A stretch of DNA of 64,000 nt. Origin: Alphaproteobacteria bacterium. GTDB taxonomy: Bacteria > Pseudomonadota > Alphaproteobacteria > UBA9219. Location of the stretch: NCBI GenBank assembly GCA_031291395.1, contig JARLJD010000138.1, forward strand, positions 3,860 to 67,859, written 5' to 3'. Positions 38,341 to 55,605 of this stretch are shown here, piece after piece. Position numbers and translations under genes: made by a program. Positions within the stretch are counted from its first letter, which is position 1; every line of letters begins with the position of its first letter. The notes under the pieces were generated by a model. The model saw only the letters and a program-made list of their open reading frames with translations. It did no database searches and was not told where the DNA came from.

Positions 38341-38456
38341 GGGATTCCCTCTCCCCCTCTTGGGGGGAGAGGGTTAGGGTGAGGGGGGACTCGGGAATTA
38401 TATCCGAACCGCCCCCCTCACCCCGACCCTCTCCCCCCAAGAGGGAGGAGAGGGAG
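38341..38456. repeat. REP/MITE family-1 reference copy (intergenic, dsbD/yqgE divergent region)
   Basis: gggattccctctccccctcttggggggagagggttagggtgagggggg - loop - cccccctcaccccgaccctctccccccaagagggaggagagggagtc; outer arm is itself a palindrome. Confidence 0.7.
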
Positions 38457-39169: not shown

Positions 39170-40066
39170 ATGCGATTGCGTCAGAATCTTTGGCTTTTGA
39201 ATTTTTCTTTGCCTGCCGAGGCGGCGGAATTTTTTGGGGATGTTTTGGGGGAGGGGGCTGTTGCGGTCTCGGTTATGGCTCCGCCGCGCAAAGCCCTCGC
39301 GCAGGTTGAGGCGATTTATAATTTTGAGCCGGACAACGGCGAAACGGCGATGCGGCTTGCCCTTTTGGCTGCTGCTTGCGGGGTGGGAGCTCCGGCGTTT
39401 ACGATCCGGCCTTCGCCTGATCTTGATTGGCTTAAAAAGGTGGCCGCGGATTTTCCACCGCTTCGGATTGCGCGGTGGACTGTGCATGGGGCGTTGCATC
39501 GCGGCAAGGTTCAAAATCGTTTGCGGGCGTTGCAGATCGACGCGACCAATGCGTTCGGCACGGGCGAGCATCCGACGACGCGCGGGTGTTTGCTGATGCT
39601 CGATCGGGTTTTGACGTCAGGGTTTCGTCCGCGCCGGATGGCCGATATCGGGTGCGGTTCCGGCATTCTGGCTATGGCTTGCGTTCAGGCGACGCGGTGT
39701 CGTGCCGTGGGCGTCGACCTCGATCCGGATTCGGCGCAGATTGCGGCGGGGAATGCGCGCGTGAATGGGCTTGGCTGGAAAATGCGCGTGGGCGCGGGGC
39801 GCGGTTATGCGGCGGCGCTGGTTCGCCGCGAGGCTCCCTATGATCTGATCATGGCCAATATTTTCGCGCGGCCGCTCTGCCGGATGGCTGCGGATTCGAA
39901 GAGAAATTTGCGCCCGGGCGGGATTGCGATACTCTCGGGGTTGTTGACGTCGCAGGCCAATATGGTTATCGCCGCGCATCGGATGCAATCTCTGGCCTTG
40001 ATCGGTCATGAGAAAATCGGCGAGTGGTCGGTGCTTGCGTTGAGGCGTTCACACAGGGCAGGATAG
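39170..40066 (+). CDS. prmA: ribosomal protein L11 methyltransferase PrmA
   Basis: 298 aa; FGTGEHPTTRGCL, DIGCGSGILAMA SAM-binding motif. Confidence 0.85.
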   Translation: MRLRQNLWLLNFSLPAEAAEFFGDVLGEGAVAVSVMAPPRKALAQVEAIYNFEPDNGETAMRLALLAAACGVGAPAFTIRPSPDLDWLKKVAADFPPLRIARWTVHGALHRGKVQNRLRALQIDATNAFGTGEHPTTRGCLLMLDRVLTSGFRPRRMADIGCGSGILAMACVQATRCRAVGVDLDPDSAQIAAGNARVNGLGWKMRVGAGRGYAAALVRREAPYDLIMANIFARPLCRMAADSKRNLRPGGIAILSGLLTSQANMVIAAHRMQSLALIGHEKIGEWSVLALRRSHRAG

Positions 40067-40070
40067 CAGC

Positions 40071-41864
40071 ATGATAAATTCCATCTTTTCCGAACGACTC
40101 TCATCCCTGCGGCGCGAGATTGAATCTGCGGGATTCGACGGCTTTCTTGTGCCTATGGCGGATGAGTATCAGAGCGAATATGTTCCGCCTTGCGCGCGGC
40201 GGGTCGCGTTTTTGTCGGGGTTTAGCGGGTCAGCCGCTTATATTGTCGTGCTGAAGGATCGCGCGGGGTTTTTTACGGACGGGCGGTATACGTTGCAGGC
40301 GGCGCAGCAGGTATCCGGCGAGCTTTTTTCTTTATTCAACTGCGCGGAAAAACCGCCTTTGGCGTGGCTGGAGGAAAATGTCGGGAAAGGCGCGCGGATC
40401 GCCTATGATCCGTGGCTGCATCCGAGCGAGGGGATAGAGCGGTTGAAGAAGGCGCTGGCCAAGGTCGGCGCGGATGCTGCGCCGGTCGCGCGAAATCTTG
40501 TCGATGTGATTTGGGAAGATCGCCCTGCAGCGCCGCTTGAACCCGTTGTCGCGCATGATCTTGCGTATGCGGGGAAAAGTTCCGCCGATAAGAGGCGGGA
40601 GATTGCCGAGGCGTTGAAAAAGAAAAATCTTGCGGCGGCCGTCATCACCGACGCGGCTTCGGTCGCGTGGCTTTTGAATGTGCGCGGGCGCGATGTCGCG
40701 CATACGCCTTTGCCGCTCAGCCGCGCCGTGGTGAAGGACGACGCAAGCGCGTTGTGGTTTGTCGATGCGCGGAAGGTGCCGGATGGGCTGCCCGCGCATT
40801 TGGGCGACCCAGTGTCGATTTTGCCGCCGGAGGATTTTCCGGCGGCGCTGGGGAATTTGGCGCGGGCAGGCAGGGGGATTCTTCTCGATCCCGCGAATGC
40901 GCCGAGTTGGATCGGGGATTATTTGCGGGAAGTTGGGGGAGAGATCGAAAAAGACAAGGATCCTTGCGCTTTGCCGCGGGCGATCAAGAATGATGTGGAA
41001 CTTGCGGGCATGCGCGCGGCGCATCGGCGGGACGGCGCGGCTTTGACGAAGTTTTTGGCTTGGCTGGACAAGCATTGGGAAGGCGGTCTGACGGAACTTG
41101 AGGCCGAGGATAAACTGGCGGCGTTTCGCGAGGCCGATGATAAATATCGCGGGCCGAGTTTCGACACGATCTCAGGCGCGGGCGAACACGGGGCGATTGT
41201 GCATTACCGCGCGACGCGCGAGAGCAATGCGCGGTTGATGCGGGGGCAGCTTTTCCTGCTCGACAGCGGCGGGCAGTATCTTGACGGCACGACGGATGTC
41301 ACGCGCACCGTCGCGCTCGGCGAGCCTTCGGCGGAGATGCGCGATCGGTTCACGCGCGTGTTGAAGGGACATATTGCGCTGGCCTCGGCGCGGTTTCCCG
41401 ACGGCACGGCGGGGGGCGATCTCGATGCGTTGACGCGACAATTTTTGTGGGCGCAGGGGCTTGATTACGGTCATGGAACCGGTCACGGCGTGGGCTGTTA
41501 TTTGGGCGTACATGAGGGGCCGCAGGCGATTTCCAGACGTAACAAAGTGCCGTTGAAGCCGGGGATGGTTTTGTCGAACGAGCCCGGTTTTTACAAGGCG
41601 GGGCATTACGGTATTCGGATTGAGAATTTGCAGGCGGTTGTGGAGGTTGCCGGTTTGGCGGGCGGCGAGCGCAAAACTTACGGTTTTGAAACGCTGACGC
41701 TTGCGCCGCTGGATCGCAAGTTGATCGAGATTGGTTCGTTGAGCAGGGACGAAGTGAAATGGATTGACGCGTATCACCGGCGCGTGAGGGAAGAGTTGCA
41801 GGGGATGCTGGATGAGGAGACGCGGGGGTGGTTGGAGGAGGAGACGAGGTTGATAGAGAAATGA
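40071..41864 (+). CDS. Xaa-Pro aminopeptidase (aminopeptidase P, M24B)
   Basis: 597 aa; N-terminal creatinase-like domains; C-terminal HGTGHGVGCYLGVHEGP and SNEPGFY pita-bread motifs. Confidence 0.85.
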   Translation: MINSIFSERLSSLRREIESAGFDGFLVPMADEYQSEYVPPCARRVAFLSGFSGSAAYIVVLKDRAGFFTDGRYTLQAAQQVSGELFSLFNCAEKPPLAWLEENVGKGARIAYDPWLHPSEGIERLKKALAKVGADAAPVARNLVDVIWEDRPAAPLEPVVAHDLAYAGKSSADKRREIAEALKKKNLAAAVITDAASVAWLLNVRGRDVAHTPLPLSRAVVKDDASALWFVDARKVPDGLPAHLGDPVSILPPEDFPAALGNLARAGRGILLDPANAPSWIGDYLREVGGEIEKDKDPCALPRAIKNDVELAGMRAAHRRDGAALTKFLAWLDKHWEGGLTELEAEDKLAAFREADDKYRGPSFDTISGAGEHGAIVHYRATRESNARLMRGQLFLLDSGGQYLDGTTDVTRTVALGEPSAEMRDRFTRVLKGHIALASARFPDGTAGGDLDALTRQFLWAQGLDYGHGTGHGVGCYLGVHEGPQAISRRNKVPLKPGMVLSNEPGFYKAGHYGIRIENLQAVVEVAGLAGGERKTYGFETLTLAPLDRKLIEIGSLSRDEVKWIDAYHRRVREELQGMLDEETRGWLEEETRLIEK

Positions 41865-41899
41865 GTGAATTTTTCTTCACGACGATTTAGAAAAAACAA

Positions 41900-42039
41900 T
41901 CGTCATTCCGGCGAAAGCCGGAATCCAGCGCGAGCGATAGCGAGCATATGAGTCAACGGAATTTCAATTTGAATCGCAGCCGGACTCTTGTGCCGCGCAG
42001 ACGCGCGGCGCTGGATTCCGGCATTCGCCGGAATGACGA
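41900..42039. mobile_element. MITE family-2 full-length copy (inverted relative to the 28119 copy) upstream of thrC
   Basis: tcgtcattccggcgaaagccggaatccagcgc ... gcgctggattccggcattcgccggaatgacga perfect ~32-bp TIRs; internal gactcatatgctcgctatcgctcgc matches the reverse complement of the 28119 copy. Confidence 0.7.
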
Positions 42040-42058
42040 ATCTTGGGGATTATAGAAA

Positions 42059-43444
42059 ATGAACATGCGCTTTCACAGCACACGCGGCCTTGCGCCGGAA
42101 ACCGATCTTCGCGGCGTCGCTCTTTCGGGGCTTGCGCCTGATGGCGGGCTTTATTTGCCAAAGATATGGCCGCAGTTTTCAACTGACGATCTTCACGCGA
42201 TGCGCGGCGAGACGTATCAGCAAATTGCGTTTCGCGTGCTTCGGCCTTTTATGCAGGGCGCGATGCCGGAGGATATTTTACGCGGGATTATCGAGAAATC
42301 CTATGCGGCGTTCGATGCGGCGGAGGTGACTCCTATGCGTAAACTTGGCGCGGATTGCCACCTTTTGGAACTGTTCCACGGCCCGACTTTGGCGTTCAAG
42401 GATGTTGCGTTGCAATTTCTCGGCCATTGTTTTGAGTATTTTTTGCAGGATTCCGGTCGGCACCTGACGATCGTCGGCGCGACGTCGGGCGATACGGGAT
42501 CGGCGGCGATCGCGGCTTTGGCGAACCGCAAAAATATTGATGTGTTTATCCTGTATCCCGACAAGGGGCCGAGCGAAATTCAGCGTCGGCAGATGACGTG
42601 CGTCGATGCGGCAAACGTTCACGCGCTTGCGGTGACGGGGACTTTCGACGACTGTCAGGGGATTGTGAAAGCCCTATTCGCCGACGCGCGGTTGCGCGAG
42701 GAGGAAAATCTCAGCACCGTCAATTCGATCAACTGGCTGCGCATTATGGCGCAGATCGTTTATTATTTTGTCGCCGCGCAGAAGGTCGAGGGCAAGCCGA
42801 CCTTCGTCGTGCCGACGGGAAACTTCGGCGATGTTTTCGCGGGCTATGCGGCAATGAAATGCGGCCTGCCTGTCGGCAAGCTGGTTGTCGCCAGCAACAG
42901 AAACGACATTTTGACGCGTTTTTTCGCCACTGGGCGCATGTCGCCGCAGGGCGTGAAGGGGACGCTTAGCCCCAGTATGGATATTCAGATCAGCAGCAAT
43001 TTCGAGCGGCTTCTGTTCGATTTATGCGGCCAAGACGCGAAGCAAGTGCGCGGCCTGATGTGCGATCTGAAAGACAAAAACGGGTTTTCGGTTTCGGACA
43101 AACAGTTAAGGCAAGCGCAGGAGATTTTTGTCGCCGGACGCGCCGACGATGAGGAAACCTTGGCGACGATTGCGGATGTGTATGATAAATATGGCTATGT
43201 GCTTGATCCCCATACGGCGGTCGGAGTGAAAGTCGCGCGGGATCTGGCGTTGCCACAGCCGGTTATTTGTTTGGGTACGGCGCATCCGGCGAAATTTCCG
43301 GATACGATTCAAAGGGCTATCGGCTTAACGCCGTCGCTGCCCGCGAAAACAGCGATCTTGATAAACAAGCCGGAACGCACCATCTTGTTACCAGCTTCGA
43401 CGGAGCGCGTTGTTGCGTTTATGAGAGAACGAAAGAAATCATGA
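42059..43444 (+). CDS. thrC: threonine synthase ThrC
   Basis: 461 aa; HGPTLAFKDVALQFLG PLP-lysine motif, long-form ThrC architecture. Confidence 0.9.
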   Translation: MNMRFHSTRGLAPETDLRGVALSGLAPDGGLYLPKIWPQFSTDDLHAMRGETYQQIAFRVLRPFMQGAMPEDILRGIIEKSYAAFDAAEVTPMRKLGADCHLLELFHGPTLAFKDVALQFLGHCFEYFLQDSGRHLTIVGATSGDTGSAAIAALANRKNIDVFILYPDKGPSEIQRRQMTCVDAANVHALAVTGTFDDCQGIVKALFADARLREEENLSTVNSINWLRIMAQIVYYFVAAQKVEGKPTFVVPTGNFGDVFAGYAAMKCGLPVGKLVVASNRNDILTRFFATGRMSPQGVKGTLSPSMDIQISSNFERLLFDLCGQDAKQVRGLMCDLKDKNGFSVSDKQLRQAQEIFVAGRADDEETLATIADVYDKYGYVLDPHTAVGVKVARDLALPQPVICLGTAHPAKFPDTIQRAIGLTPSLPAKTAILINKPERTILLPASTERVVAFMRERKKS

Positions 43445-44703
43445 CCATACAAATCACGGAACTGGATAACGGCCTACGGATCGCGACCGATACGATGGAG
43501 GGCGCGGAGAGCGTCGTGCTGGGCGCGTGGGTCGGCGTCGGGACGCGGCACGAGCCGTGGAGGGCCAACGGCGTCGCGCATCTGGTCGAGCATATGATGT
43601 TCAAGGGGACGAAGACGCGGTCTTCCTACGCGCTGTCCTCGGCAATCGAGAACAAGGGCGGCGACATGAACGCGCACACCTCGCGCGAGGAGACGGCCTA
43701 TTACGCGCGGGTTTTGCCAGAGGAAGCTGAAAACGCGATTGATATTATCTCCGACATGCTGCGCCATTCTGTTTTTGCGCCCAAGGAATTGGATCGCGAA
43801 CGGCAGGTGGTCATTCAGGAAATCGGGCGCGATCTGGATTCGCCCGAAGATTACGTGTTCGACCTGATGCATCTGTTGGCGTTGCCCGGGCAGAAAATCG
43901 GGCGGTCGATTTTGGGAACCGCCGACGTCATCGCCGCTTTGCCGCGCTCCGCTATCGCCGATTATGTGGCGCGTTATTATGTGGCGGCGAATATGGTCGT
44001 GGTGGCGGCGGGGAAAATCACGCACGAAGCTTTCGTCGCCATGGTCAAAAAGCGTTTCGCCGGATTGCCGCGCGGCAAGAAGCCGGTTTCAGAGCAAACC
44101 CGCGTCGCTTCCGGCGCGAAGCTCTCGCCGAAGGAAATCGAGCAGGTGCATTTGATTTTGGGCTTCGCCGGGCCGGGCTATCATGCGCGGGCTTCTTATT
44201 ATGCGACGCAGGTTCTGTCGCTGATTCTGGGCGGCAGCGCGTCCTCGCGCCTGTTTCAGAAAGTGCGCGAGAAGCGCGGGCTTGTCTATACGATTAACTC
44301 GGCGCATATGGCGTTCAGCGACGCCGGCATTTTCCAGATCTATGCCGGAACGGACCCCAAGCGGCTGCGCGAACTCGTTCCCGTCGTTTGCGGCGAATTG
44401 GGCGACATCAGAAAGAACGTGACGCGCGGCGAGTTGGCGCGCGCCAAGGCGCAGGTCAGAGCCGATTTGCTGATGGGCAAAGAAAGCGTCATGCGCCGCG
44501 CCGAAATCATGGGGCATCAAATCCTCGCCTATGGCAAGCCGATACCGGCGGAGAAGATTCTAGAGCGTCTGTTGGCGGTCACGCCGGAAGACGTGCAAAA
44601 CGCGGCGCGGAAAGTGTTCGCGAAAAAGCCGATTCTCACGGCGCTGGGGCCGCTGGAGGAACTGGAGGATTATGGAGGGATTGCAGCGAGATTGAAGGAG
44701 TAG
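43441..44703 (+). CDS. M16-family zinc peptidase (insulinase/PqqL-like); ATGA start/stop overlap with thrC; ORF begins at 43267
   Basis: HXXEH motif GVAHLVEHMMFKGTKTRSS, paired M16 N and C domains. Confidence 0.8.
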   Translation: MTIQITELDNGLRIATDTMEGAESVVLGAWVGVGTRHEPWRANGVAHLVEHMMFKGTKTRSSYALSSAIENKGGDMNAHTSREETAYYARVLPEEAENAIDIISDMLRHSVFAPKELDRERQVVIQEIGRDLDSPEDYVFDLMHLLALPGQKIGRSILGTADVIAALPRSAIADYVARYYVAANMVVVAAGKITHEAFVAMVKKRFAGLPRGKKPVSEQTRVASGAKLSPKEIEQVHLILGFAGPGYHARASYYATQVLSLILGGSASSRLFQKVREKRGLVYTINSAHMAFSDAGIFQIYAGTDPKRLRELVPVVCGELGDIRKNVTRGELARAKAQVRADLLMGKESVMRRAEIMGHQILAYGKPIPAEKILERLLAVTPEDVQNAARKVFAKKPILTALGPLEELEDYGGIAARLKE

Positions 44704-44825
44704 GCGGCCAGTTTGAATGGCTGGACGGTTTGTGCGATGCTCTGTTCACCTAATGGATGGGGGGGGTGCAGCTTGAATGCTGCTCCCCCTTTTATACCAA
44801 TCGCTCGATGAAATGACAGGCTAAG

Positions 44826-44930
44826 CAACATGAGCGGTAGACTCCCCTTCCCCTCGAGGGAAGGGGCGGGGGGATGGGGGGACGCACGAGCCGTATTCAT
44901 AAAGCATACACATTTTGCGGCCCCCCCCAA
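44826..44930. repeat. degenerate REP family-1 remnant downstream of gspE
   Basis: ctccccttcccctcgagggaaggggcggggggatgggggg ... ccccccccaacccc; arms recognisable but eroded. Confidence 0.35.
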
Positions 44931-44933
44931 CCC

Positions 44934-46817
44934 CTAAAAACTTGATTGCCCGATTCTTGTCATATCGACATTGCGGCGCAGTTCGTCGAGGCTGGTTTCT
45001 TGGCGCAGGACTTTGGCGATGCCGTCGGCGGACATGGGACGAAATCCTTCGTACGCTGCCTGTTTGCGCAAAGCCGACTGTGGCGCGTCGTTCGCGATCA
45101 ATTCATCCATTTGTGGCGTGATGCGCAGAATCTCGGTCACGGCGCAGCGGCCGCGATAGCCTGTTTGGTTGCAATGATCGCAACCTTTGGCCTCGGCAAT
45201 CATCAGGGGGGCGTCGATTGATATTTGCGCCTCAGCAAATTCCTTGTTGCAAAGAGCCGCACGGACTCCCTCTCCCCCTTCTTGGGGGGAGAGGGTCGGG
45301 GTGAGGGGGGGGTGAGGGATATAACCACAATCGCCCCCCTCACCCAACCTTCTCCCCCCGGTGGGGGGAGAGGTCTTTGCTCCGCGCAAAATCTCCATTT
45401 CCTGAACCGTCGCCGTTCGCGCGCGTTTGCATTTCGGGCATAGCTTGCGCACCAGCCGTTGCGCCACAATGCCGCTGATATTCTCTGCCATGATACGTGA
45501 GGACAAACCCAAATCGTTTAACCGCGGCAGCGCGCCGAAAACATCGTTGCAGTGCAACGTCGTGAAAACCTGATGCCCCGTCATCGCCGCGCGCAGCGCC
45601 ATTCGCGCCGTATCGTCGTCACGCACTTCGCCGACAAAAATAATGTCAGGCGCTTGCCGCAAAATGCCGCGCACGCCTTCGGCAAAGGTCAGCCCTTGCT
45701 GCTCCTGAATGGCGGTTTGGCGGATCATCTCGAATTGATATTCGACCGGCTCTTCCAACGTCATGATGTTGACTTCGACGGTGCTGAGCCGTTTCAGCAT
45801 CGCGTAAAGCGTCGTCGTCTTGCCGCTGCCGGTCGGCCCCGTAACCAAAACAACGCCTTCAGGCCGTTCCAGAATCCCGTCAAGTTGCGTCAAAGCCTTT
45901 GCGTCATAGCCCAGCTTTTCCAAAGGCAGCAAAGCGCGGCGGTGATCGAGGATGCGGATAACAATATTTTCGCCCTGAACCGTCGGCATCACCGCCATAC
46001 GGAAATCGATGTCCGCGCTGCCGATTTGCATGTGGAAACGCCCGTCTTGCATGCTGCGCGTATCGGCGATGTTCATGCCCGCCATAATTTTCAGCCGATG
46101 CGACAATTCCGGCCAGTGCGAGCGGTGCAAAGCGTGTTTCTGCCTCAAAACCCCGTCCACGCGCACACGCAGGCGCACAAAGGAATTTTCAGGCTCCAAA
46201 TGAATGTCCGAAGCCCCTTCGCGCACGGCGTCCGTCAGGATGTTGTTGACGAGGCGAATGACGGGGTGTTGCCACGCCTCGCCTTCTTGCGCCAGCGTCG
46301 CTGCGACGCCTTCCAGTTCCGACAAAATAGCGTCGAAATCGACGTTCGTGCGCGCGTGCGCGTCGATCGCGTCCAGAATAGCCGTTTCGGCGGCGATCAG
46401 CGGGACGATCTCGATCTGGCGCGGAAAATAACGCCGCACTTCGTCCAGCGCCTTGATGTCGTGCGGGTCGGCCATCGCCAGATGCAAGACGTTTCCGTCG
46501 AACGCGACCGGCGCGGCGCGGCACCGCTCGGCCACAAGGCGCGGCAAGCGGCGCATCGCCTCGGGATCAATGTCGATATTCTTCAGTTCGACGGCGTCGC
46601 GCCCCGTATGCGCGGCAAGCGCGTTCGCCAGAATTTCGTCGTTGATGAAGCCCAGCTTGACCAAAGTCGCGCCCAACCGTTCTCCCCCGCGCCGCTGCTC
46701 ATGCAGGGCGATTTGCAGTTCGTCCTGCGTGATGAAATCGCCGCGCAGTAGACGTTCGCCGAGGCGAAGGGGCTTGTTTTTATCGCTGTCGTTGCGCAGA
46801 GCGGCGACTTTGCTCAT
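44934..46817 (-). CDS. type II secretion/type IV pilus assembly ATPase (GspE/PilB/MshE family) with tandem MshEN-type N-terminal motifs and an in-frame REP insertion in the C-terminal zinc-finger region
   Basis: 627 aa; RLGERLLRGDFITQDELQIALHEQ and RLGATLVKLGFINDEILANALAAH motifs; Walker A GPTGSGKTTT; CPKC ... CDHC tetracysteine split by the peptide [32 protein letters not shown]. Confidence 0.85.
   Translation of the reverse strand: MSKVAALRNDSDKNKPLRLGERLLRGDFITQDELQIALHEQRRGGERLGATLVKLGFINDEILANALAAHTGRDAVELKNIDIDPEAMRRLPRLVAERCRAAPVAFDGNVLHLAMADPHDIKALDEVRRYFPRQIEIVPLIAAETAILDAIDAHARTNVDFDAILSELEGVAATLAQEGEAWQHPVIRLVNNILTDAVREGASDIHLEPENSFVRLRVRVDGVLRQKHALHRSHWPELSHRLKIMAGMNIADTRSMQDGRFHMQIGSADIDFRMAVMPTVQGENIVIRILDHRRALLPLEKLGYDAKALTQLDGILERPEGVVLVTGPTGSGKTTTLYAMLKRLSTVEVNIMTLEEPVEYQFEMIRQTAIQEQQGLTFAEGVRGILRQAPDIIFVGEVRDDDTARMALRAAMTGHQVFTTLHCNDVFGALPRLNDLGLSSRIMAENISGIVAQRLVRKLCPKCKRARTATVQEMEILRGAKTSPPTGGRRLGEGGDCGYIPHPPLTPTLSPQEGGEGVRAALCNKEFAEAQISIDAPLMIAEAKGCDHCNQTGYRGRCAVTEILRITPQMDELIANDAPQSALRKQAAYEGFRPMSADGIAKVLRQETSLDELRRNVDMTRIGQSSF
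45262..45376. repeat. REP/MITE family-1 copy inserted in frame within the GspE/MshE-like ATPase gene
   Basis: gactccctctcccccttcttggggggagagggtcggggtgaggggggggtgaggg ... cgcccccctcacccaaccttctccccccggtggggggagaggtc. Confidence 0.65.
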
Positions 46818-46820
46818 GCG

Positions 46821-47762
46821 TCACCACGTCGTATTGCATGCGCCGTTCCCGAACATGCTGACCAGCGCGTTGCGGTCGGCGTAGGCGAGGACGTCGTCGT
46901 AAGGATCGGTATCTCCTACGACGGTCATAGCGTCGACGAAATTCGCCGTGCCTGCGGCGTTACATTTAGGATAACCGCTATAGGCGCTGCAAGGGTTGTA
47001 GGTTGCAGATGATGGATTGTTTGGTGGCGATGGAAACGGCATTTGCCACCCTTGTTGGAGACTTGCAACATAAGAACCGTAGCCGGTCGAACCATAACTG
47101 ACGAAAATGACAGCGGCTTTCTGCGATGTGCCGTTTGGCGTCGATACAGTGATAGGTACGGCGTTGCTGGCCGCGCTAAGATTGTATTTGCATAGCCCTT
47201 TATCCGAATATCCGACCGGCGAACCGCTTTGCGCCGCACAGTACCCGCTGCTGTAATCGGCGGTTGTGCAAAGGGCGGTTGGAGGAATAAATATATAATT
47301 GGAACAGGAGTTGCTCGCAGTCCCGCAATTCGCGGGGTTTGTCAGCGCCGGATCAACTCGCATCGTGATCCAGTGTCCCCAGCCGTCATGCGCGGTCGAT
47401 GCGGGAAGGCCGAGGGAGACATAAGGCGGAATGCCTTCGGGCGACGAGCAGATGCCGCAGGCATTTGGCGTCGGTTTGCCGCTGGTATTTATTATGTAAC
47501 TTGTTTCTGTCCCAAAACCGGTTCCGCTCGTAGCGGCGGGGCAGGGGAGGCAGCCGTTGGCCTGAACATAAGCCGCGGTCGCCAGCATCAGGCTGCGCAG
47601 GTTGCTTTGCGTCAGGGACAGTTGGTTGGCGGAACGGACTGTGTTCAGCGCAGGTAGAACCGTCAGCATCACAAGCCCCATAACGACCAAAACCACGGCC
47701 ATTTCGACGAGGGTGAAGCCAGAGCGCGATGTATCGTCTTTGGAACAAAAAACGACGGTCAT
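46821..47762 (-). CDS. large Cys-rich prepilin-type protein (type IV pilin/pseudopilin-like, class III signal); ORF extends to 48044 through a REP
   Basis: MTVVFCSKDDTSRSGFTLVEMAVVLVVMGLV prepilin leader with G/FTLVE cleavage-methylation motif; 14 Cys in the mature region; GGAGAGGGG RBS comes from the adjacent REP. Confidence 0.6.
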   Translation of the reverse strand: MTVVFCSKDDTSRSGFTLVEMAVVLVVMGLVMLTVLPALNTVRSANQLSLTQSNLRSLMLATAAYVQANGCLPCPAATSGTGFGTETSYIINTSGKPTPNACGICSSPEGIPPYVSLGLPASTAHDGWGHWITMRVDPALTNPANCGTASNSCSNYIFIPPTALCTTADYSSGYCAAQSGSPVGYSDKGLCKYNLSAASNAVPITVSTPNGTSQKAAVIFVSYGSTGYGSYVASLQQGWQMPFPSPPNNPSSATYNPCSAYSGYPKCNAAGTANFVDAMTVVGDTDPYDDVLAYADRNALVSMFGNGACNTTW

Positions 47763-47968
47763 AGCCCCTCTCCGCCCGCCCTTGCGGGGGGAGAGGGGAG
47801 ATGCCGACGTTCGAGCAAGAGCAAAAGGTTGAATGGGGTGAGGTGGGTGGTCGAGGGCGTGAATAATCTTCGGAACCCACCTCACCCCTTTCGTTCTGCC
47901 GCTCTTGTCCCGCGTTCTGTCCCTCCCCTCTCCCCCCGCAAGCGCGGGCGGAGAGGGGTTATCAGCGC
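47763..47968. repeat. REP/MITE family-1 long variant abutting the start codon of the Cys-rich pilin gene
   Basis: near-identical to the 20578 copy (gaatggggtgaggtgggtggtcgagggc ... cccacctcacccc; outer gcccctctccgcccgcccttgcggggggagagggg). Confidence 0.6.
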
Positions 47969-48028
47969 CGTTTCCGTTGTTGAAGAGCAGGGGGCTTTCC
48001 ATAATTGTTTTTCCAGCCTTTGCCTTCC

Positions 48029-48688
48029 TTACATCTGCATGCACATCGTATAAGTCTTTGAGGAGTCATAAGTAGCGGCGACGGTGCCATTTACAGCTTC
48101 GCCGACAGTACCCGTTGAAATCATCGCTTGAATCGATCCACTGTTGCTAACTCCGTCATCAAGGCGCGAGTCAATGGCTGACGCCGCATCCCCTGGCACA
48201 CCGTTGAGGCATAAGACGTTGGTTGTAAAAACTCCGTTGAAAGCGCCGTGCTGGAATCCATAAATACCTCCAAACGGATTAACTGGCTGGCTGGCGTCGG
48301 TTCCCGCGCCTTTGACAAGTCCTGCGGCGCGTAAATCCGCCCACAACAAATTGGTTTCTGCGTAATTTTCTGTGCCACTTGTTGTTGGCGTATTGTCGAA
48401 GGAGCCTTCAAGAGTGCCGTTGCCATTTCCGCTTGCGGGTATGCCGGCACTCGGAAAACGTGTCGTCGAAGCAAGCGCGTCGTCGCCCGGCATCGCGCCA
48501 TAGTTTTGCGTATAGGTTTGGAACTGCGCTTCATAAGCCTGAATGGAATTGATCACGTTCGTGACCTGCGCGTTTTGCATGATCTGCCTGCCGGTCAGAA
48601 CGCCGCCGATGATCAGGCCGATGATGACGAGAACGATCGAAAGCTCGACCAGCGTAAAACCGGCATTGCGTTGCTTTTTCCTTATCAT
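48029..48688 (-). CDS. type IV pilin-like protein (prepilin-type N-terminal cleavage/methylation domain); ORF extends to 48919
   Basis: MIRKKQRNAGFTLVELSIVLVIIGLIIGGV; GGAGAAAACAG RBS; Gly/Thr/Asn-rich C-terminal domain; 13 bp after the secretin gene. Confidence 0.7.
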   Translation of the reverse strand: MIRKKQRNAGFTLVELSIVLVIIGLIIGGVLTGRQIMQNAQVTNVINSIQAYEAQFQTYTQNYGAMPGDDALASTTRFPSAGIPASGNGNGTLEGSFDNTPTTSGTENYAETNLLWADLRAAGLVKGAGTDASQPVNPFGGIYGFQHGAFNGVFTTNVLCLNGVPGDAASAIDSRLDDGVSNSGSIQAMISTGTVGEAVNGTVAATYDSSKTYTMCMQM

Positions 48689-48701
48689 CTGTTTTCTCCG
48701 T

Positions 48702-50492
48702 CTAGAGGGTGGAATCGGAATCGTCGTCGTTATCATTGGCGGAAGGTTTGGCTGGAGCGCTGGGAATCTCCATCGGCCTTGGATCGTTGTTGTAATGCTG
48801 GTAAAGTTCGCTATCGGCTTTGTCGGGCGCGGGTTGATCCGCGATCGTGGCGCGCAGCAGGATGACAAGCTCGCTGGTCTTGCCTTCGTTGTCGCGCGAC
48901 TTGAACAGATTTCCGGCATAGGGAATGTCCGCCATGCCCGGCACGCCCTGATCCGTGTTGATCGAGCTGTCTTGCATCAAACCGCCCATGATCGCGATCT
49001 CGCCCGAGTGAAGCTGGATCACGGAATCCATCTCGCGCACCGCCAGAACCGGAATTTGCGATTGGACGGAAGTCGTCACGCCCGCGACGGCCGCGTTGAG
49101 GCTAATCGACGGATCATTGACTTCCCCTACCACGCGCGAAATTGTCGGGCGCAACGTCATTGTCACCCGATTGTGTTCCGCGTCGATGGAAGGCTGCACC
49201 GTCATCACAAGCCCGACCGGAACCGTGCGCGGGGTGCTGGTGTAAATCGGATTGGTAGTGATCGACGCGCCGCTGGCGTTGGTCGTGGTCGTGAATTGCG
49301 CCTGCGTGACGAAATAAACCTGATTGGTGGCGACTTTCATCACGGCGGTTTGATTGTTCAAAACGGTGATCCGTGGCGCAGACAAAACCCGCGTCGTGCC
49401 GAAAGTCTGAACCAGATTGATCATGCTGTTGAAACTGGTTCCCGTGACGCTGGCGGTAAAAACGCCGTTCGCGTTCAACGCCGCCTGCGTGCCGAAATTG
49501 GAAGCGATGCCGACCGTGTTTTTGAATACCCCATTCCAATCGATGCCCGATTGATAGCCGTCATCCAGCTCGACCTCGATGATCCGCGCGTCGATCAAGA
49601 CTTGCGCGTCGGCCTTACGGCGCAATTCCACGAAATATTTTTCGATAGCTTGCTGTTGCTTCTGAGTGCCGTAAACGGTGACCATGCCCGCTTGCTTATC
49701 GATGCTGAAATTGGCTTTTCCGTTCGATTTGCTCTCCCCCGCGCCCAAAATCTGTGCGATCGATTTTTCCGTTTCCGCCCAGAAATCGGCGTCGGACGTG
49801 CCGGAAACTTTGGCGGTCGAATTGTTCTCGGTCGAGGTCGAGCCGAGATTGCCGTTACCCGACGCGCCTGATGTCGTGCCGTTCGCGCCGACATCGACAT
49901 CGAACACATTGGTGGCAATAGAGGTATTGCTGGATGTTTTCCGCGCGAGGCTAAGGTAATCGAGGCGATAGGATTTCTGATAAGGATCGTCCGGTTCGAT
50001 ATGGATGAACGCGCCGTCGATCGTGTAACGCAAATTCGCCATAGTGCAGACGCGTTTCAGGATTTGCCCGAAAGGCTGATCGTGCGCGGTAAGGATGACG
50101 CTGCCTTGCACGCGCGGGTCGAGCTCAAGGTTCGCGCCCGTTTTGCGCACCAGCTCCATCAACACGTCGCGCACGGGGACGGTGTCCGTGACGGTCACGC
50201 TGACCCGTTTATCCAAAAGCGGATTTGATCCAACCGCATCGGATTCCTCTTCCGGCATTTTGGGAATGGGGGGGATGGAGGTTTTTTTTTCGGCTTCGGC
50301 CGTATTGGGCTTCTGGCGGTTGCGCAAAGCCATATAATCTTCGCGGCTCAATCCGCCCGTAGGGTCGATATTGCCAGTTGTCAAAAGCCCCGCCGACGGC
50401 GTGCAGCCTTGCACGATCAACAGGGACAGAATTAAAAGTATCAGATGAGGAAGAAGCCGCAGCTTCATGGGAATTAACAAAAAGTTAACCAT
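48702..50492 (-). CDS. secretin (GspD/PilQ family) outer-membrane channel lipoprotein
   Basis: 596 aa; lipobox LLIVQGC; secretin N domain; C-terminal secretin core VLIDARIIEVELDD ... GGLMQDSSINTDQGVPGMADIPYAGNLFKS ... VILLRATI. Confidence 0.85.
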   Translation of the reverse strand: MVNFLLIPMKLRLLPHLILLILSLLIVQGCTPSAGLLTTGNIDPTGGLSREDYMALRNRQKPNTAEAEKKTSIPPIPKMPEEESDAVGSNPLLDKRVSVTVTDTVPVRDVLMELVRKTGANLELDPRVQGSVILTAHDQPFGQILKRVCTMANLRYTIDGAFIHIEPDDPYQKSYRLDYLSLARKTSSNTSIATNVFDVDVGANGTTSGASGNGNLGSTSTENNSTAKVSGTSDADFWAETEKSIAQILGAGESKSNGKANFSIDKQAGMVTVYGTQKQQQAIEKYFVELRRKADAQVLIDARIIEVELDDGYQSGIDWNGVFKNTVGIASNFGTQAALNANGVFTASVTGTSFNSMINLVQTFGTTRVLSAPRITVLNNQTAVMKVATNQVYFVTQAQFTTTTNASGASITTNPIYTSTPRTVPVGLVMTVQPSIDAEHNRVTMTLRPTISRVVGEVNDPSISLNAAVAGVTTSVQSQIPVLAVREMDSVIQLHSGEIAIMGGLMQDSSINTDQGVPGMADIPYAGNLFKSRDNEGKTSELVILLRATIADQPAPDKADSELYQHYNNDPRPMEIPSAPAKPSANDNDDDSDSTL

Positions 50493-50645
50493 AACGAGGA
50501 AGCGCGAACTTTTATTACAAAATACGGGTGTGTGTCAAATTTATTTGCGACAAGTGTAATGTTTCAATTAGAAAAGGAAGAAAAATAGGGGAGAAAAGAT
50601 ATATACCCTTCTTGTTTGCAATCCCTTTCGTGAAAGGAAAACATC

Positions 50646-51368
50646 ATGTCAGGACAATTTTTCACAAAGCAGGCACAGGAAAACTCCCTGTCCAACCGCA
50701 TCTTATGGTGGGCATTCGGTATAAAAATCGGTTATCTGGACAATATAGACCCGCAGTTTCTGGCGTCTCAAAAAGATTTCTGGATGTTGAGCAAAGATTT
50801 TTACACGCTCGCGCAGGTTCGTAAAGCTGAATGGGTGCAGAGATTCAGCAATCCCGATCAAACAACAACGCTGGTTGCCGTGGATCATCTAAGCCCGAAC
50901 ATGGCTTCTGTTGCGACGATGGATCCTTACAAAACAACGGAATTACAGAAAAATGATTCTAACTGGATGGTTAAACGCCTTCAAGAGATCATGGCGCCGG
51001 TTGTGAAGGGGACGCCCGAAGATCAAAAACAAGCGTGCATGGAACGCAATAAATTGTTGGGTCATTCGAGGCTGCCTGCGCAAGTCGTTATCGCCGGAGA
51101 TAATGTTCTTTCGCTTCAATTTTACACAACCAACCCCATGCGCGGCCCTTTGTTTGGCATCAAGGCCGATAAGAGGAGAGGGGGGCTGGCGCGCGCTATC
51201 TATGATTATGGGGTTGGGATTATTCAAAAAGTCATTTGCGGCGAAACGATTGAACGAAAGAGCGAAGACGGCACGACCCAAGAACCGATTGTTTTGTCAC
51301 CGGCAAGAAATATGTGGGGAGACGATTTGTCTCATGTGAAAGAGGATTTGCGCGCCAAACTTGGCTGA
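50646..51368 (+). CDS. hypothetical cytoplasmic protein in a low-GC segment, divergent from the secretin gene
   Basis: 240 aa; no signal peptide, no motif recognised; AT-rich coding sequence and an AT-rich 150-bp divergent promoter region. Confidence 0.5.
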   Translation: MSGQFFTKQAQENSLSNRILWWAFGIKIGYLDNIDPQFLASQKDFWMLSKDFYTLAQVRKAEWVQRFSNPDQTTTLVAVDHLSPNMASVATMDPYKTTELQKNDSNWMVKRLQEIMAPVVKGTPEDQKQACMERNKLLGHSRLPAQVVIAGDNVLSLQFYTTNPMRGPLFGIKADKRRGGLARAIYDYGVGIIQKVICGETIERKSEDGTTQEPIVLSPARNMWGDDLSHVKEDLRAKLG

Positions 51369-51386
51369 GCAAACGATTGGCGGCAT

Positions 51387-52151
51387 TTATGAGCCTGCGC
51401 TGTCATTGGCGTGGGGATAACTCACGCTCCACAAACATAAACCCTGCGCCGGAGCCGTCGGGCCGCCCTTGGCGCGGTCGCAGGCGGCGAAAGCGGTTTT
51501 GAAATCGTCCAGCGTCAGGCGACCTGTTCCGACAAGACACAACGTGCCGGCCATATTGCGCACCTGATGATAAAGGAACGAACGCGCTTCGACCGTGACG
51601 ATGATTTCCTCGCCGTCTCGCGTCAGATCGCATCGATCCAAAGTCTTGACTGGCGAATTAGCTTGGCAATTCCGGGCGCGGAAGGTCGAGAAATCGTGAT
51701 GACCGATCAGAACATCCGCTGCTTGCTGCATTGCGCCAATATCCAGCTCATGCGCCACATGCCACGCATACTGATAGTGCAGAGCCAAAGGCGCGCGGCG
51801 ATTGATGATGCGATACCGATAGCTGCGCTTTAAGGCATCGAACCGCGCGTGGAAATTCTCATCGACCGGTGCGGCGTTCAGGATCGCGATTTTGTTCGGG
51901 CGCAAATAAAAATTCAGCGCGTCGCGAATGATGTCGCCGCTGGTTTCCTTATTCAGATCGAAATGCGCCACCTGCGCCCGCGCATGCACACCCGCGTCCG
52001 TCCGCCCCGCGACATGCAGCGTAACGATTTCTCCGGAAAACTTCGCAATCGCTTCTTCAAGCGTCTGCTGAACGGAACCCGCATTCGTCTGCCTCTGCCA
52101 CCCGCAGAATCCGGAGCCGTCATATTCGATCGTTAGTTTCCAGCGGGGCAT
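51387..52151 (-). CDS. truA: tRNA pseudouridine(38-40) synthase TruA
   Basis: 254 aa; MPRWKLTIEYDGSGFCGWQRQ, HVAGRTDAGVHA catalytic Asp motif. Confidence 0.9.
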   Translation of the reverse strand: MPRWKLTIEYDGSGFCGWQRQTNAGSVQQTLEEAIAKFSGEIVTLHVAGRTDAGVHARAQVAHFDLNKETSGDIIRDALNFYLRPNKIAILNAAPVDENFHARFDALKRSYRYRIINRRAPLALHYQYAWHVAHELDIGAMQQAADVLIGHHDFSTFRARNCQANSPVKTLDRCDLTRDGEEIIVTVEARSFLYHQVRNMAGTLCLVGTGRLTLDDFKTAFAACDRAKGGPTAPAQGLCLWSVSYPHANDSAGS

Positions 52152-52297
52152 AGGGAAAGGCCAAAGTCAATTTTTGAACGCCGAACCTGTTTACGATCTT
52201 GTCCGTCAGGCTGCAAGGCAAGGAAAAAGGCAAGGAAAAAGCTTGCGTTGTAGTCACAATGGGACTACAATAACAGCAACTGAAGAGGGGAAAGATC

Positions 52298-52567
52298 ATG
52301 AACGTCATTGCAGACACCTATGTTCGCGCGCGCATCGACGCGGGAACAAAGAACAAAGCCGCCGCCGCGCTCGGAAAAATGGGGCTTTCCGTATCGGACG
52401 CCATTCGCCTCTTGATGTTGCGGATAGCTGACGAAAAGCGATTGCCGTTTGAAGTCAAGGCGCCCAATGCCGCAACGCGTCGCGCCCTTTCGGAACTGGA
52501 TGCCGGAAAGGCGAAGGGCTTTACCAGCGTTGAAGCTTTAATGGCAGATTTGCATGCGGACGATTAA
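52298..52567 (+). CDS. dinJ: DinJ/RelB-family antitoxin
   Basis: 89 aa; RHH-type N-terminus; overlaps the downstream YafQ-like toxin gene by 14 bp. Confidence 0.75.
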   Translation: MNVIADTYVRARIDAGTKNKAAAALGKMGLSVSDAIRLLMLRIADEKRLPFEVKAPNAATRRALSELDAGKAKGFTSVEALMADLHADD

Positions 52568-52835
52568 TCGGCCGATCTCTTTCAAGAGAGATTTTAAGCG
52601 CGAGGCAAAGGGAAAGCACAGAGCCAATCTTGACGCTAACCTTGCGTCGGTTCTGGCGGCGTTGGCAACGGATGTTCCGTTGGAACCGCATCAACGCGAC
52701 CACGCTTTAGGCGGTCATTGGCACGGGTGTCGAGAATGCCATATTAAACCTGATTTGCTTCTGATTTATCGCAAACCGGACAGCGAAACATTGGAATTGG
52801 TTCGGCTTGGCTCTCATAGCGAACTGTTTGGATAA
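52554..52835 (+). CDS. yafQ: YafQ-type RelE/ParE-family mRNA interferase toxin
   Basis: 93 aa; [24 protein letters not shown] ... [24 protein letters not shown] typical of YafQ. Confidence 0.75.
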
Positions 52836-53767
52836 GACGGAAGGCGCGTTCCCACCTTCAACCTCAATCCGCGCAGCATCGCATCTCCCGCCGTCGCCTT
52901 CCCGCCCGCCCTCTGTACCGACAAAAGACGCAAGGCTCCGTTGCCGCAGGCGATAGTAAATGTGTCGTCGAGCAAAGTCCCCGGCTCTCCCGTTTGCCCC
53001 TCGACGATTTCCGCCGCCAACAGTTTCACCGTCTCGCCATTCAGCAAAAAGAAACATCCGGGCCAAGGATGCAACGCCCGCAACTTCCGTTCGATTTCAA
53101 CAGCCGGTTTGTTCCAGTCGATTTTGCCGTCCTCACGCGTCAATTTGGTGGCATAAGTCGCGCCGGTTTCCGGCTGGGGCGTGGGGTGTAAGCGTCCTGC
53201 TGTCAAATCGTCCAACGCGCGCACGATCAAATGCGCCCCCACCTCTGCCAAAGCGTCATGCAGGCTTTGCGCTGTCGTCTGATCCGTAATCGGCACGCTT
53301 TCTTTCAGCAGCATCGCGCCCGTATCCAGCCCCGCATCCATTTGCATAATCGTGATGCCGCTTTCCGCGTCGCCCGCCAGAATGGCGCGTTGAATAGGCG
53401 CTGCGCCGCGCCAGCGCGGCAGAAGCGAGCCGTGAATGTTGAGGCAACCATACTTCGGCGCCGATAAGATCGCCCGCGGCAAAATCAGCCCATAAGCCGC
53501 AACCACCGCGACATCGAGATTGAGCGCCGCGAATTTTTCTTGTTCCAGCGGATCGCGCAAAGTTTTCGGCGTGCGCACCTCGATCCCCAAAGCTTCCGCC
53601 GCGCAATGCGCCGGAGTTTTCTGCACCTGATGCCCGCGCCCAACAGGTTTCGGCGGCTGGCAATAAACGGCGGCAATGTCGTATTGCGCCTGATGCAAAG
53701 CCGTCAGCGCAGTAACCGCAAAATCAGGCGTGCCCATAAAGGCGATGCGGAGAGGAGGGGGGGTCAT
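52814..53767 (-). CDS. fmt: methionyl-tRNA formyltransferase Fmt (start at internal Met; ORF extends to 53818)
   Basis: [32 protein letters not shown], def-fmt gene pair. Confidence 0.9.
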
Positions 53768-53777
53768 AGCGTCAACA

Positions 53778-54305
53778 TCACAAAATATGCCCTTCTTCCT
53801 CTTTCCTCTCCTTCTCAATCTTCTTCAAAATCATGTCGCGTTTCAGTTTGGAAAGATGGTCGATGAACAGCACGCCGTTCAGGTGGTCGATTTCGTGCTG
53901 GATGCACTGGCTCAGCAAATCTTCGGCTTCCAGTTCCTGCTTCTTTCCGCGCGGATCAAGATAGGTCATGCGAATGCGCTTGGGGCGTGTGACGTTGGCG
54001 TAATGCCCGGGAATGGACAGGCAGCCTTCGTTATAGGTAAAGGTCTCGACCGGATCGCTCCAGATCACTTCCGGATTGGCCATAAGCAAAGCGCCCTTGC
54101 CGTTGCGCTCCTCCGACACGTCGACCGCGATGATGCGTTCCAAAGAACCGACCTGATTGGCCGCAAGCCCGATGCCGTTGCCTTTGTACATCGTCTCAGC
54201 CAAATCTTCCATGAATTTGGCGACGCGCTTGTCAATATCCGTCACCGGCTGCGCGACTTGGCGCAGGACTTCGGCGGGGATGATGCGTATGGTGAGATGA
54301 GACAT
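53778..54305 (-). CDS. def: peptide deformylase Def
   Basis: 175 aa; [24 protein letters not shown] metal-binding motifs. Confidence 0.9.
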
Positions 54306-54402
54306 TGAAAACCTTTATTGGATTAGAATGGTTATAATATACGACAAGCGTTCTTCCGGCGAAAGGTCTGCCCCATTGAAAAAAGAGGTCGGAATAGAGA
54401 AG

Positions 54403-55605
54403 TCACGCCGCGTCATCTTTCTCAACCGAATCAACCACTTGCAACCCCCTCGGCCTCGTATCAATCGGATCAATCGCCTCCACCAGTTCCTTGCCCTCCT
54501 TATGCGCCCCAAAATCGCGCAAGCGCCGCGCCTTGCTTAGCACATTTCTCTCAAGGCTCCCGATCATGCGGTTATAGCTGTCGAGCGTGCCTGAAAGTTT
54601 TCTGCCCATATCGCACACATGATCGGTCATCGTCGTGATTGCCGCGTAAAGCTCCCCGCCCAGATCGCCGAGTTTTTGAGCGTTCTCGCGCAAATTTTCC
54701 TGCCGCCAGCTTAGCGCCACCGTGCGCAGCAGGGCGACCAAGGTCATCGGCGTCGCCAGCACGACGTTATGCGTCACGCCATATTCGATCAAATCAGGAT
54801 CGCAATCCAAAGCGCCCGCCAGAAAATGATCGCCCGGCACGAACAGCACCACGAAATCCGCCGAGCCGTCAATCTGATCCCAATAGGCTTTGGCGCTTAA
54901 AGCGCGGATATGCTCGCGCACCTGCCGCGCGTGTTTTTCCATCGCCGCGCGTTTGAAATCGTTGTCGTTGCTCTGCGCGCCGTCGAGGTAGGCGGCGAGC
55001 GGAACCTTGCTGTCGATAATCACACAGCGGTCGCCCGGCATCCGGATAACATAATCGGGGCGCAAAGCGCCGTCTTCGCCATTGATGTGATGCTGCGCGG
55101 AAAAATCGTTGGCATGTTCCGCCATGCCGGTCATTTCCAAAATGCGCCGCACCTGAATTTCCCCCCAGCGTCCCCGCGTGGTAGGCGTGCGCAAAGCCTG
55201 CAGCAGTTGCCCCGTTTCGTCGCGCAGCTTTTGCTGGGATTCGTTCGACAGCGAGACCGCCTGCATCAATTCCTTGTAAGCCCCGTGACGCGCGACTTCC
55301 AGTTCCTTAAGCTGCGCGTCCATCTTGCTCAGTGTTTCCTTAACAGGCTTGATCAGCTCATCGATCGCGACGGATTTTTTGTCGAGGGTCGCGGCCGCCG
55401 CCAGCTCACTCTGCTTCAATCGGCTTTCGGCCAGTTGCAGAAAGCTTTCGTGGCTCTGGCGCAACGTCTCGGCTGCGATCGAGCGGAACCTGTCCCCCCA
55501 TTGCGTCTCATTTCCTGCCCGTGCGCGCGTCGCCAGCCAAACGGCTGCAGCGCCGAAAATCAAGCCGAGGAACAAGGTGAGGATGAGATAACCTGTGATT
55601 TGCAT
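54403..55605 (-). CDS. rmuC: DNA recombination protein RmuC
   Basis: 400 aa; N-terminal TM helix, long coiled coil, C-terminal RmuC nuclease-like domain (DFVVLFVPGDHFLAGAL). Confidence 0.85.
   Translation of the reverse strand: MQITGYLILTLFLGLIFGAAAVWLATRARAGNETQWGDRFRSIAAETLRQSHESFLQLAESRLKQSELAAAATLDKKSVAIDELIKPVKETLSKMDAQLKELEVARHGAYKELMQAVSLSNESQQKLRDETGQLLQALRTPTTRGRWGEIQVRRILEMTGMAEHANDFSAQHHINGEDGALRPDYVIRMPGDRCVIIDSKVPLAAYLDGAQSNDNDFKRAAMEKHARQVREHIRALSAKAYWDQIDGSADFVVLFVPGDHFLAGALDCDPDLIEYGVTHNVVLATPMTLVALLRTVALSWRQENLRENAQKLGDLGGELYAAITTMTDHVCDMGRKLSGTLDSYNRMIGSLERNVLSKARRLRDFGAHKEGKELVEAIDPIDTRPRGLQVVDSVEKDDAA

Follow-up and report, generated by a model that had tools for sequence, protein, structure and literature searches.

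The stretch of DNA analysed here (hereafter the window) comprises 64,000 nucleotides (nt) of contig JARLJD010000138.1, which belongs to a metagenome-assembled genome (MAG) deposited as 'Alphaproteobacteria bacterium'. On its minus strand lie four intact open reading frames (ORFs) for components of a type IV filament system, namely (i) a secretin, (ii) a prepilin of 219 amino acids (aa), (iii) a Cys-rich prepilin of 313 aa, and (iv) an ATPase of the PilB/GspE class (Table 1), and the window proteins are found in GenBank as MDR3424866-69, on a contig of 69,682 bp. The original prediction, made from the letters of the sequence, had placed here four co-directional genes for a lipoprotein secretin, two prepilin-type proteins and an MshE/GspE-like ATPase, between a convergent M16 peptidase gene and a divergent low-GC hypothetical gene, and had noted that platform, peptidase and alignment genes were missing. 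This description is borne out, since the coordinates and the common strand are confirmed, the family matches agree and the neighbours are as described. As regards the missing genes, the platform and downstream proteins of related operons, used as tblastn queries, gave no match in the window, and a six-frame motif scan of the window returned two prepilin motifs, one T2SSE Walker A motif and nothing further, i.e., no second T2SSE gene. For the prepilin peptidase, the expression applied in that scan, G[GAS]GD[VIFLAM]K, found no match either, this expression being ad hoc and a weak test.

The secretin has MshL (TIGR02519) as its top NCBIfam match, at 225.3 bits and thus under the cutoff of 250.2, with GspD as the runner-up at 126.7 bits, and its lipobox Cys is kept in six relatives. 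The real start of the gene is probably at position 50468, because NCBI calls a protein of 588 aa and the closest relatives, L003 and L005, begin with MKLR. The 219-aa prepilin has the leader MIRKKQRNAG, with cleavage predicted before FTLVE (Gly-1, Phe+1, Glu+5), and carries Cys160 and Cys216 close to its C-terminus, which could form a C-terminal disulfide. It is 64-79% identical to its counterparts in relatives and, against L003, the most conserved of the four gene products; sequence matches to Protein Data Bank (PDB) entries are confined to the N-terminal helix. This protein may well be the major subunit.

The larger prepilin, with the same Gly-1, Phe+1 and Glu+5, contains 13 Cys, 12 of them in the mature part, within motifs that include ANGCLPCPA and DGWGHWITMRVDP. 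In an alignment of 40 sequences, Cys71, 74, 102, 105, 191 and 309 are invariant, while Cys165, 258 and 267 are kept in at least 90% of the sequences. Its AlphaFold model (pLDDT 84.2, pTM 0.83) consists of a helix at residues 17-69 and a head domain, for which a search of PDB folds gave no significant match, the top one being CofA (E = 1.6). A role as priming, tip or minor pilin, or as adhesin, would be compatible with these features. Homologues number 232 at E<=1e-3, and the wider family of ~300-aa prepilins has 62 representatives at E<=1e-30 and 3,479 at E<=1e-10.

The ATPase retains Walker A, GEVRD (Walker B), TGH (His-box), QDGR and both CxxC pairs, and the residues around these motifs are invariant in a four-sequence alignment. 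Its N-terminal MshEN domain is accompanied by a match to the NCBIfam domain NF053729 for the cyclic di-GMP (c-di-GMP) motif (59.4 bits for a cutoff of 38), and two 24-residue MshE-type c-di-GMP motifs are found in tandem, each with 10/11 conserved positions, separated by a spacer of 5 residues. The MshEN domain is not exclusive to MSH systems, as it also occurs in PilB and PilF. Against structures, the full-length protein scores highest with PilF and PilB (402-359 bits), PDB coverage of MshE being restricted to the N-terminal domain (5htl). The core alone gives 310 bits with GspE (1p9r) and 275 bits with the PilF core, and NCBIfam scores are 458 for GspE and 470 for PilB. When the ATPase was used in tblastn against plasmids in search of MshE, PilB and GspE references, all matches were below 40% identity and no MshE annotation appeared among the 40 matches listed.

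A genome scan with the secretin retrieved three genomes labelled 'Rhodospirillaceae' at 70-75% identity and one labelled 'Bdellovibrionales' at 57%. In relatives, a clade of uncultured alphaproteobacteria, these four genes open a longer operon of eight genes, ordered as secretin, ~215-aa pilin, ~300-aa Cys-rich pilin, MshEN ATPase, T2SSF platform, and three proteins of ~495, ~200 and ~131 aa. The conserved operon is seen in L003, L005, L006, L009, L010 and L013, and in every relative with enough flanking sequence the genes continue in the same direction past the ATPase through the platform and the three following genes; the gene after the ~131-aa one is convergent. The platform belongs to T2SSF with E-values of 1e-43 to 1e-47, and its start codon either overlaps the stop codon of the ATPase gene or directly adjoins it. 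Directly upstream of the operon, L003 and L010 (the latter an 889-kb scaffold) show the same rmuC-def-fmt-truA neighbourhood as the window, so the locus looks vertically inherited in this lineage. No prepilin peptidase is present in the relatives' operon loci.

The three last proteins of the operon escape recognition by sequence. For the ~495-aa protein, Pfam, NCBIfam and PDB profile searches gave no usable match, and the same holds in Pfam and NCBIfam for the ~200-aa and ~131-aa proteins as well as for the accessory proteins of a more distant homologue in Rhodocyclus. By contrast, the AlphaFold model of the ~495-aa protein (pLDDT 86.5) comprises an actin-like domain, a long helix and a ferredoxin-like C-terminal domain, with PilM (3jc8, 5eoy, 2ych) and cytoplasmic GspL/EpsL as top PDB folds (E 1e-8 to 1e-5). 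Judging from this modelled fold, the protein would be a fused PilM-PilN, or a GspL/MshI-type, alignment protein. The ~200-aa protein appears to be PilO/GspM-like, a 204-aa member of the family showing a faint T2SSM match (E = 0.027), and the ~131-aa protein is presumably exported.

In the window, this arrangement is interrupted where the ATPase coding sequence ends. With L003, L005 and L009, nucleotide homology extends as far as 44953-44956, within the final ATPase codons, and no further; a 5'-truncated copy of a palindromic repeat follows directly, beyond which comes the convergent gene, identified as an M16 peptidase by family search. None of the genes that follow the operon in relatives lies close to this junction in the window, so that a simple internal deletion is not demonstrable. 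Logan assemblies of the runs SRR23300977 and SRR23300978 hold exact copies of parts of the window, on contigs that all end at repeats; L001 breaks at 47935, and L007, an independent contig equivalent to window positions 42011-44869, ends at 44869, inside a 30-nt hairpin beside the junction. Queries for exact matches to the ATPase and to the large pilin retrieved no record.

The missing parts were found in the same data. Besides an exact copy of the secretin contig, SRR23300977 contains a contig of 1,367 bp (L008), flanked by the repeat on both sides, with an intact 403-aa platform gene (P0003), whose ranking of identities, L009 > L003 > L005 > L010 > L006 > L012, is identical to that of the window ATPase and whose GC content at third codon positions is 0.72 vs 0.71 for the ATPase. 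A second contig from this run (L015, 2,177 bp) has the repeat at its start; 17 nt further on comes a 493-aa PilM/N-like gene (P0126), and then a 201-aa PilO-like gene. P0126 corresponds to GenBank MDR3423470.1 (locus tag P4M13_00110), on a 21.8-kb contig, and this accession, about 1,400 numbers from MDR3424866-69, points to the same genome. Another PilM/N-like protein, P0123, was the best match of Logan origin; it comes from a different run (SRR12695112) and was discarded in favour of P0126. We conclude that other contigs of this genome hold the platform, PilM/N-like and PilO-like genes.

The reading we favour, with a probability of about 0.78, is that the window holds the promoter-proximal half of the eight-gene operon, which breaks off where the ATPase gene ends, with the platform, PilM/N-like and PilO-like genes intact elsewhere in the genome and accompanied by the same repeats. 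The window would then contain part of a type IV filament system that is MSH-related, compact and uncharacterised, in a copy that has been split or fragmented by repeats. It does not qualify as a new machine reduced to its essentials, because the four genes begin a conserved eight-gene operon and the missing parts lie elsewhere in the genome. The original prediction had offered two interpretations: a minimised or novel machine, which has to be abandoned since relatives carry a platform and three alignment-type genes and matching genes exist elsewhere in this genome, and a module borrowing components encoded elsewhere, which was essentially right, the platform, PilM/N-like and PilO-like genes being in the same run. 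It had also named a split operon as the outcome that would undo the idea of a novel machine, and the distal genes do lie on other contigs.

Several points weigh against this reading. The source is a short-read MAG, and the genes are attributed to one genome through the run and the repeat family that they share, a similar degree of divergence and accession numbers close to each other. No platform protein appears in the GenBank protein set of this genome, the 1.4-kb piece that carries it being probably too short and left unbinned, and neither a ~131-aa homologue nor a prepilin peptidase was recovered for this genome. The hairpin over the start of the large-pilin gene and a 32-aa insertion in the ATPase could impair expression or function, and the choice between pilus and secretion, like the roles given to the two pilins, is reached by inference only.

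The same points could be taken further, namely that the system has lost its function through the rearrangement and the inserted repeats, the ORFs being intact only because the damage is recent. Decay of this kind would account for the broken operon, the ATPase insert, the unrecovered ~131-aa homologue and a large-pilin start codon buried in a hairpin of -174 kcal/mol with a U-run behind it. It is nonetheless unlikely, given that the seven genes recovered are all full-length ORFs, that every ATPase motif checked is retained, that the insert falls in a loop which in L006, too, differs in length, and that in-frame copies of the repeat are carried by AcrB-family and DsbD genes which are still open.

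It is likewise improbable that the genes specify a pseudopilus exporting proteins in the manner of type II secretion, instead of a surface pilus. The nearly equal scores of the ATPase core with GspE and PilB, the GspL architecture of the fused PilM/N-like protein and the name PulG given by some database annotators to members of the large-pilin family all lean that way. On the contrary, GspE, GspD and GspG equivalog cutoffs are missed widely, GspC and GspH-K were found in none of the relatives, the secretin is nearest to MshL and carries Secretin_N_2, and the small pilin has two Cys near its C-terminus, a pair that typifies type IV pilins, not GspG. In addition, a larger related locus (L014) encodes two PilT-like ATPases, which suggests, by gene content, that a retractile pilus is to be favoured over a secretion pseudopilus.

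Assembly offers a further way out, in which the eight genes would be contiguous, with palindromic repeats between the ATPase, platform and PilM/N-like genes, and the join of ATPase and M16 genes would be a chimera formed at a repeat. Each short-read contig nearby (L001, L007, L008, L015) does break at repeats, the run must contain the junction hairpin in two or more contexts since L007 terminates within it, and a platform-repeat-PilM/N order would suit the hairpins with which L008 ends (A, 3' side) and L015 begins (B, 5' side). Such a chimera is however quite unlikely. The contig reads without a break through several other copies of the repeat, the pairs at 26231, 37297, 45265 and 47764 among them; the junction copy is cut off on its 5' side where it meets unique ATPase sequence, which joining by shared k-mers would not produce; and no ATPase remnant is left in the 70 nt that precede the platform start codon. 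Moreover, the hairpin that follows the ATPase is ccccttccctcgaggggaagggg and the one at the 5' end of L008 is tccccccaagagggggga; the two are different, so that a simple ATPase-repeat-platform join does not fit. Whether the split is true or an assembly chimera, the system is not platform-less. The idea of a self-sufficient four-gene machine, with no need for platform or alignment proteins, is barely credible, its sole support being the absence of those genes from the window, when in relatives they always adjoin the ATPase, matching genes occur in the same run and accession series, and we know of no type IV filament system that functions without a platform protein. The missing parts are thus absent from the contig, not from the organism, and the claim of a platform-less minimal machine carries no weight.

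Among the closest known systems is MSH, as exemplified by the MSHA pilus of Vibrio cholerae. The MSH model has mshA, E, G, L and M as mandatory genes, several pilin genes (mshA-D, O-Q) and a single locus without prepilin peptidase (Denise et al., 2019, PMC6668835), and the supplements of that study included none of the taxa searched here. Similarities are the MshL top family of the secretin, the tandem c-di-GMP motif in the MshEN domain, a locus without prepilin peptidase (by regular expression only in the window) that relatives keep in one piece, and an MshG-type platform, missing from the window, which adjoins the ATPase in relatives and is found in the same run as L008/P0003. Differences are no less marked: (i) the operon is split in this genome, though in a single locus in relatives, (ii) the MshL cutoff is missed, at 225 vs 250 bits, (iii) MshM (an ExeA-like AAA protein) is absent, with no AAA_22-type gene in the window, L009 or L010, such a gene being found only in the Rhodocyclus homologue, (iv) the alphaproteobacterial operon has no MshN-type TPR protein, (v) it contains only two prepilins, and (vi) the alignment proteins and both pilin heads match no known family by sequence, the similarity of the pilins to solved ones, MshA (9lab) included, being limited to the N-terminal helix. 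We file this as an MSH-related variant and not as a member of the MSH class.

Membership of type II secretion, type IVa and Tad systems is rejected because curated cutoffs are missed. With type IVa pili, the system shares the high scores of its ATPase with PilF and PilB structures and with NCBIfam PilB, as well as a short leader with Gly-1, Phe+1 and Glu+5. PilB (TIGR02538, 470 vs 675.65) and PilQ (TIGR02515, 98.7 vs 284.35) both stay under cutoff. PilM and PilN are, by fold, fused in the relatives' ~495-aa protein, no separate PilM, N, O or P is recognised by sequence, PilT is absent from the window and the close relatives' loci, and the genes form one compact operon instead of several loci. 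With type II secretion, the common features are a GspE-class ATPase, a T2SSF platform and a GspL-like alignment protein combining cytoplasmic and periplasmic parts, but the secretin is a lipoprotein with Secretin_N_2 instead of the GspD N-domain series, and the window and the relatives' operons have two prepilin genes only and neither GspC nor GspH-K. GspE (TIGR02533, 458 vs 630) and GspD (TIGR02517, 127 vs 351) remain under cutoff, as does GspG (TIGR01710, 27 vs 89, N-terminus only). The prospect, raised by the original prediction, that the ATPase would group with canonical GspE and the prepilins with type II pseudopilins did not materialise, the prepilins being alike in the N-terminal helix alone. 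For Tad/Flp (type IVc) systems, TadA/CpaF (TIGR03819) scores 56.8 against a cutoff of 373.

A tentative sequence of events can be drawn. Both prepilins would be cut after Gly-1 by a prepilin peptidase encoded elsewhere, the hexameric ATPase would dock on the platform via the PilM/N-like protein and polymerise the 219-aa pilin, the large Cys-rich pilin would prime or cap the fibre, and the fibre would exit through the lipoprotein secretin. Extension may be switched on by c-di-GMP at the MshEN domain, as in the Vibrio MSHA pilus; gating of this kind is the best guess because of the tandem MshE-type motif at the ATPase N-terminus. The system is probably a c-di-GMP-gated adhesive pilus, with attachment to surfaces or cells as its likely output. 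The 'Bdellovibrionales' labels prompt the guess, and no more than a guess, that the carriers could be predators similar to Micavibrio; a literature search on Micavibrio brought nothing of use.

Outside the close relatives, the distant homologue in Rhodocyclus gracilis (L012, WIXJ01000013.1) shows an MSH-like gene order, namely AAA protein, secretin, TPR protein, ATPase and platform, and also has the accessory triplet and homologues of both pilins. Between the triplet and the pilin homologues, L012 14104-16155 encodes a 683-aa protein with a GspK/PilX-like hydrophobic N-terminus and no family match, possibly a tip adhesin, which has no counterpart in the alphaproteobacterial operon. The larger locus L014 (JGI 3300081562, positions 1-20912 of a 594-kb contig) starts with a TPR protein, a peptidase A24 N-domain protein, the two PilT-like ATPases and three unassigned proteins, and continues with four prepilins, two unassigned proteins, an MshEN ATPase, a platform and proteins of 561, 234 and 150 aa; the ATPase-platform-triplet module thus also occurs, by this gene order, in a larger locus with retraction-type ATPases.

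Type IVa-like systems had been called uncommon in alphaproteobacteria. Whatever the case in cultured members, the present family is frequent in uncultured ones: besides the 232 large-pilin homologues, the platform has about 90 close homologues (35-100% identity) among 179 matches at E<=1e-10. An uncharacterised, compact, MSH-related operon is therefore common in uncultured members of a class better known for Tad pili. It could tentatively, as a possibility that we consider well below even, be a distinct and unnamed subtype of MSH-related type IV filament, defined by two pilins (one with a head unseen in solved structures), a fused PilM-PilN with two small partners that sequence searches fail to recognise, a lipoprotein secretin and control by c-di-GMP. 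Uncultured alphaproteobacteria carry it widely, including some whose records are labelled 'Bdellovibrionales', and in the present genome it may still be working though split by repeats into separate transcription units and with a motor longer by 32 residues. With its small parts list (eight genes, two pilins), a confidently modelled pilin head without solved counterpart and alignment proteins detectable by fold alone, the operon could help to define the minimal requirements for filament assembly. For genome scans, it calls for caution, as gaps in MAGs can stem from repeat-driven fragmentation and binning.

Table 1. Position of the filament genes, repeats and neighbouring features in the 64,000-nt window
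Feature	Position	Strand	Remarks
Lipoprotein secretin, MshL-like	48702..50492	-	Pfam Secretin 112.5 bits, Secretin_N_2 36.1 bits
219-aa prepilin	48029..48688	-	Pfam N_methyl 29.4 bits
Cys-rich large prepilin, 313 aa	46821..47762	-	Pfam N_methyl 26.7 bits
Extension ATPase, PilB/GspE/MshE class	44934..46817	-	Pfam T2SSE 392.6 bits, MshEN (PF05157, N-terminal) 63.3 bits for a cutoff of 23.1
Repeat insertion within ATPase gene	45240..45375		In-frame, +32 aa, between two CxxC pairs
Nested palindrome between the two pilin genes	47750..47973		224 nt; 3' arm covers large-pilin start codon
Repeat copy, 5'-truncated, abutting ATPase stop	44840..44933		End of synteny with relatives, from sequence
Main repeat, copies	26231-26342, 37297-37409, 45265-45373		In-frame in open genes
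Main repeat, further copies	35091-35214, 38345-38454, 47764-47958		
Main repeat, single hairpins	178, 8118, 20579, 21798, 34229, 44844, 63904		
240-aa ORF, divergent neighbour of secretin	50646-51368	+	Low-GC patch, 0.42 vs about 0.56
Promoter candidate 5' of secretin gene	50538..50567	-	Sigma-70-like, TTGAAA-18-TAAATT, 9/12 matches

The repeat found at the operon break is a GC-rich composite palindrome of about 110-130 nt, in which two CCCTCTCCCC...GGGGAGAGGG hairpins surround a variable centre. Its core occurs 4 times in the window where 0 are expected, and in none of 12 other loci, among them the relatives' operon loci covered by this comparison. Within the ATPase gene, the insert, with hairpins at 45265-45295 and 45347-45373, corresponds to a 32-column gap in all three relatives of the alignment. 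Other in-frame copies are found in an AcrB-family pump of the RND type (residues ~515-552) and in DsbD (residues ~296-335), and such copies appear to be tolerated because both genes remain open. Between the two pilin genes, where relatives have a gap of about 10 nt, the palindrome is built of 51-nt arms that are 90% complementary and of inner 33-nt arms; as RNA, it is predicted to fold at -174.5 kcal/mol (z = -12.65). It could attenuate or block the expression of the genes past the candidate major pilin. These elements recall REP/MITE-like repeats and the Rickettsia palindromic elements (RPE). As for RPE, short palindromes are scattered and inserted in-frame, here in the genes of a motor ATPase, an RND pump and DsbD, and in a different lineage; in contrast with RPE, the present element is very GC-rich and has no sequence relation to them, no repeat database having been consulted.

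A second repeat family, formed by cgtcattccggcgaaagccggaatcc and its inverse, is present at 41899-41948 and 42000-42040, where the arms enclose about 60 nt between an aminopeptidase P-like gene (40071-41864) and thrC. Over 50 nt, one arm shares 96% identity with L003 2999-3048, and a near-identical copy lies at the 3' end of the PilO-like contig L015.

Upstream of the secretin, sigma-70-like sites are no more numerous in the region than in shuffled sequences, so the promoter candidate of Table 1 is weak evidence, and an Rfam search of 40000-56000 gave no match. The 240-aa ORF, located between truA and the secretin gene, has no Pfam or NCBIfam match and is probably an insertion, because it is missing at the equivalent position in L003 and L010. 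Further upstream, between fmt and truA, a pair made of a RelB-type antitoxin and a YafQ/ParE-type toxin is encoded on the plus strand (52298-52835), and this pair is missing from the same fmt-truA interval in L003 and L010.

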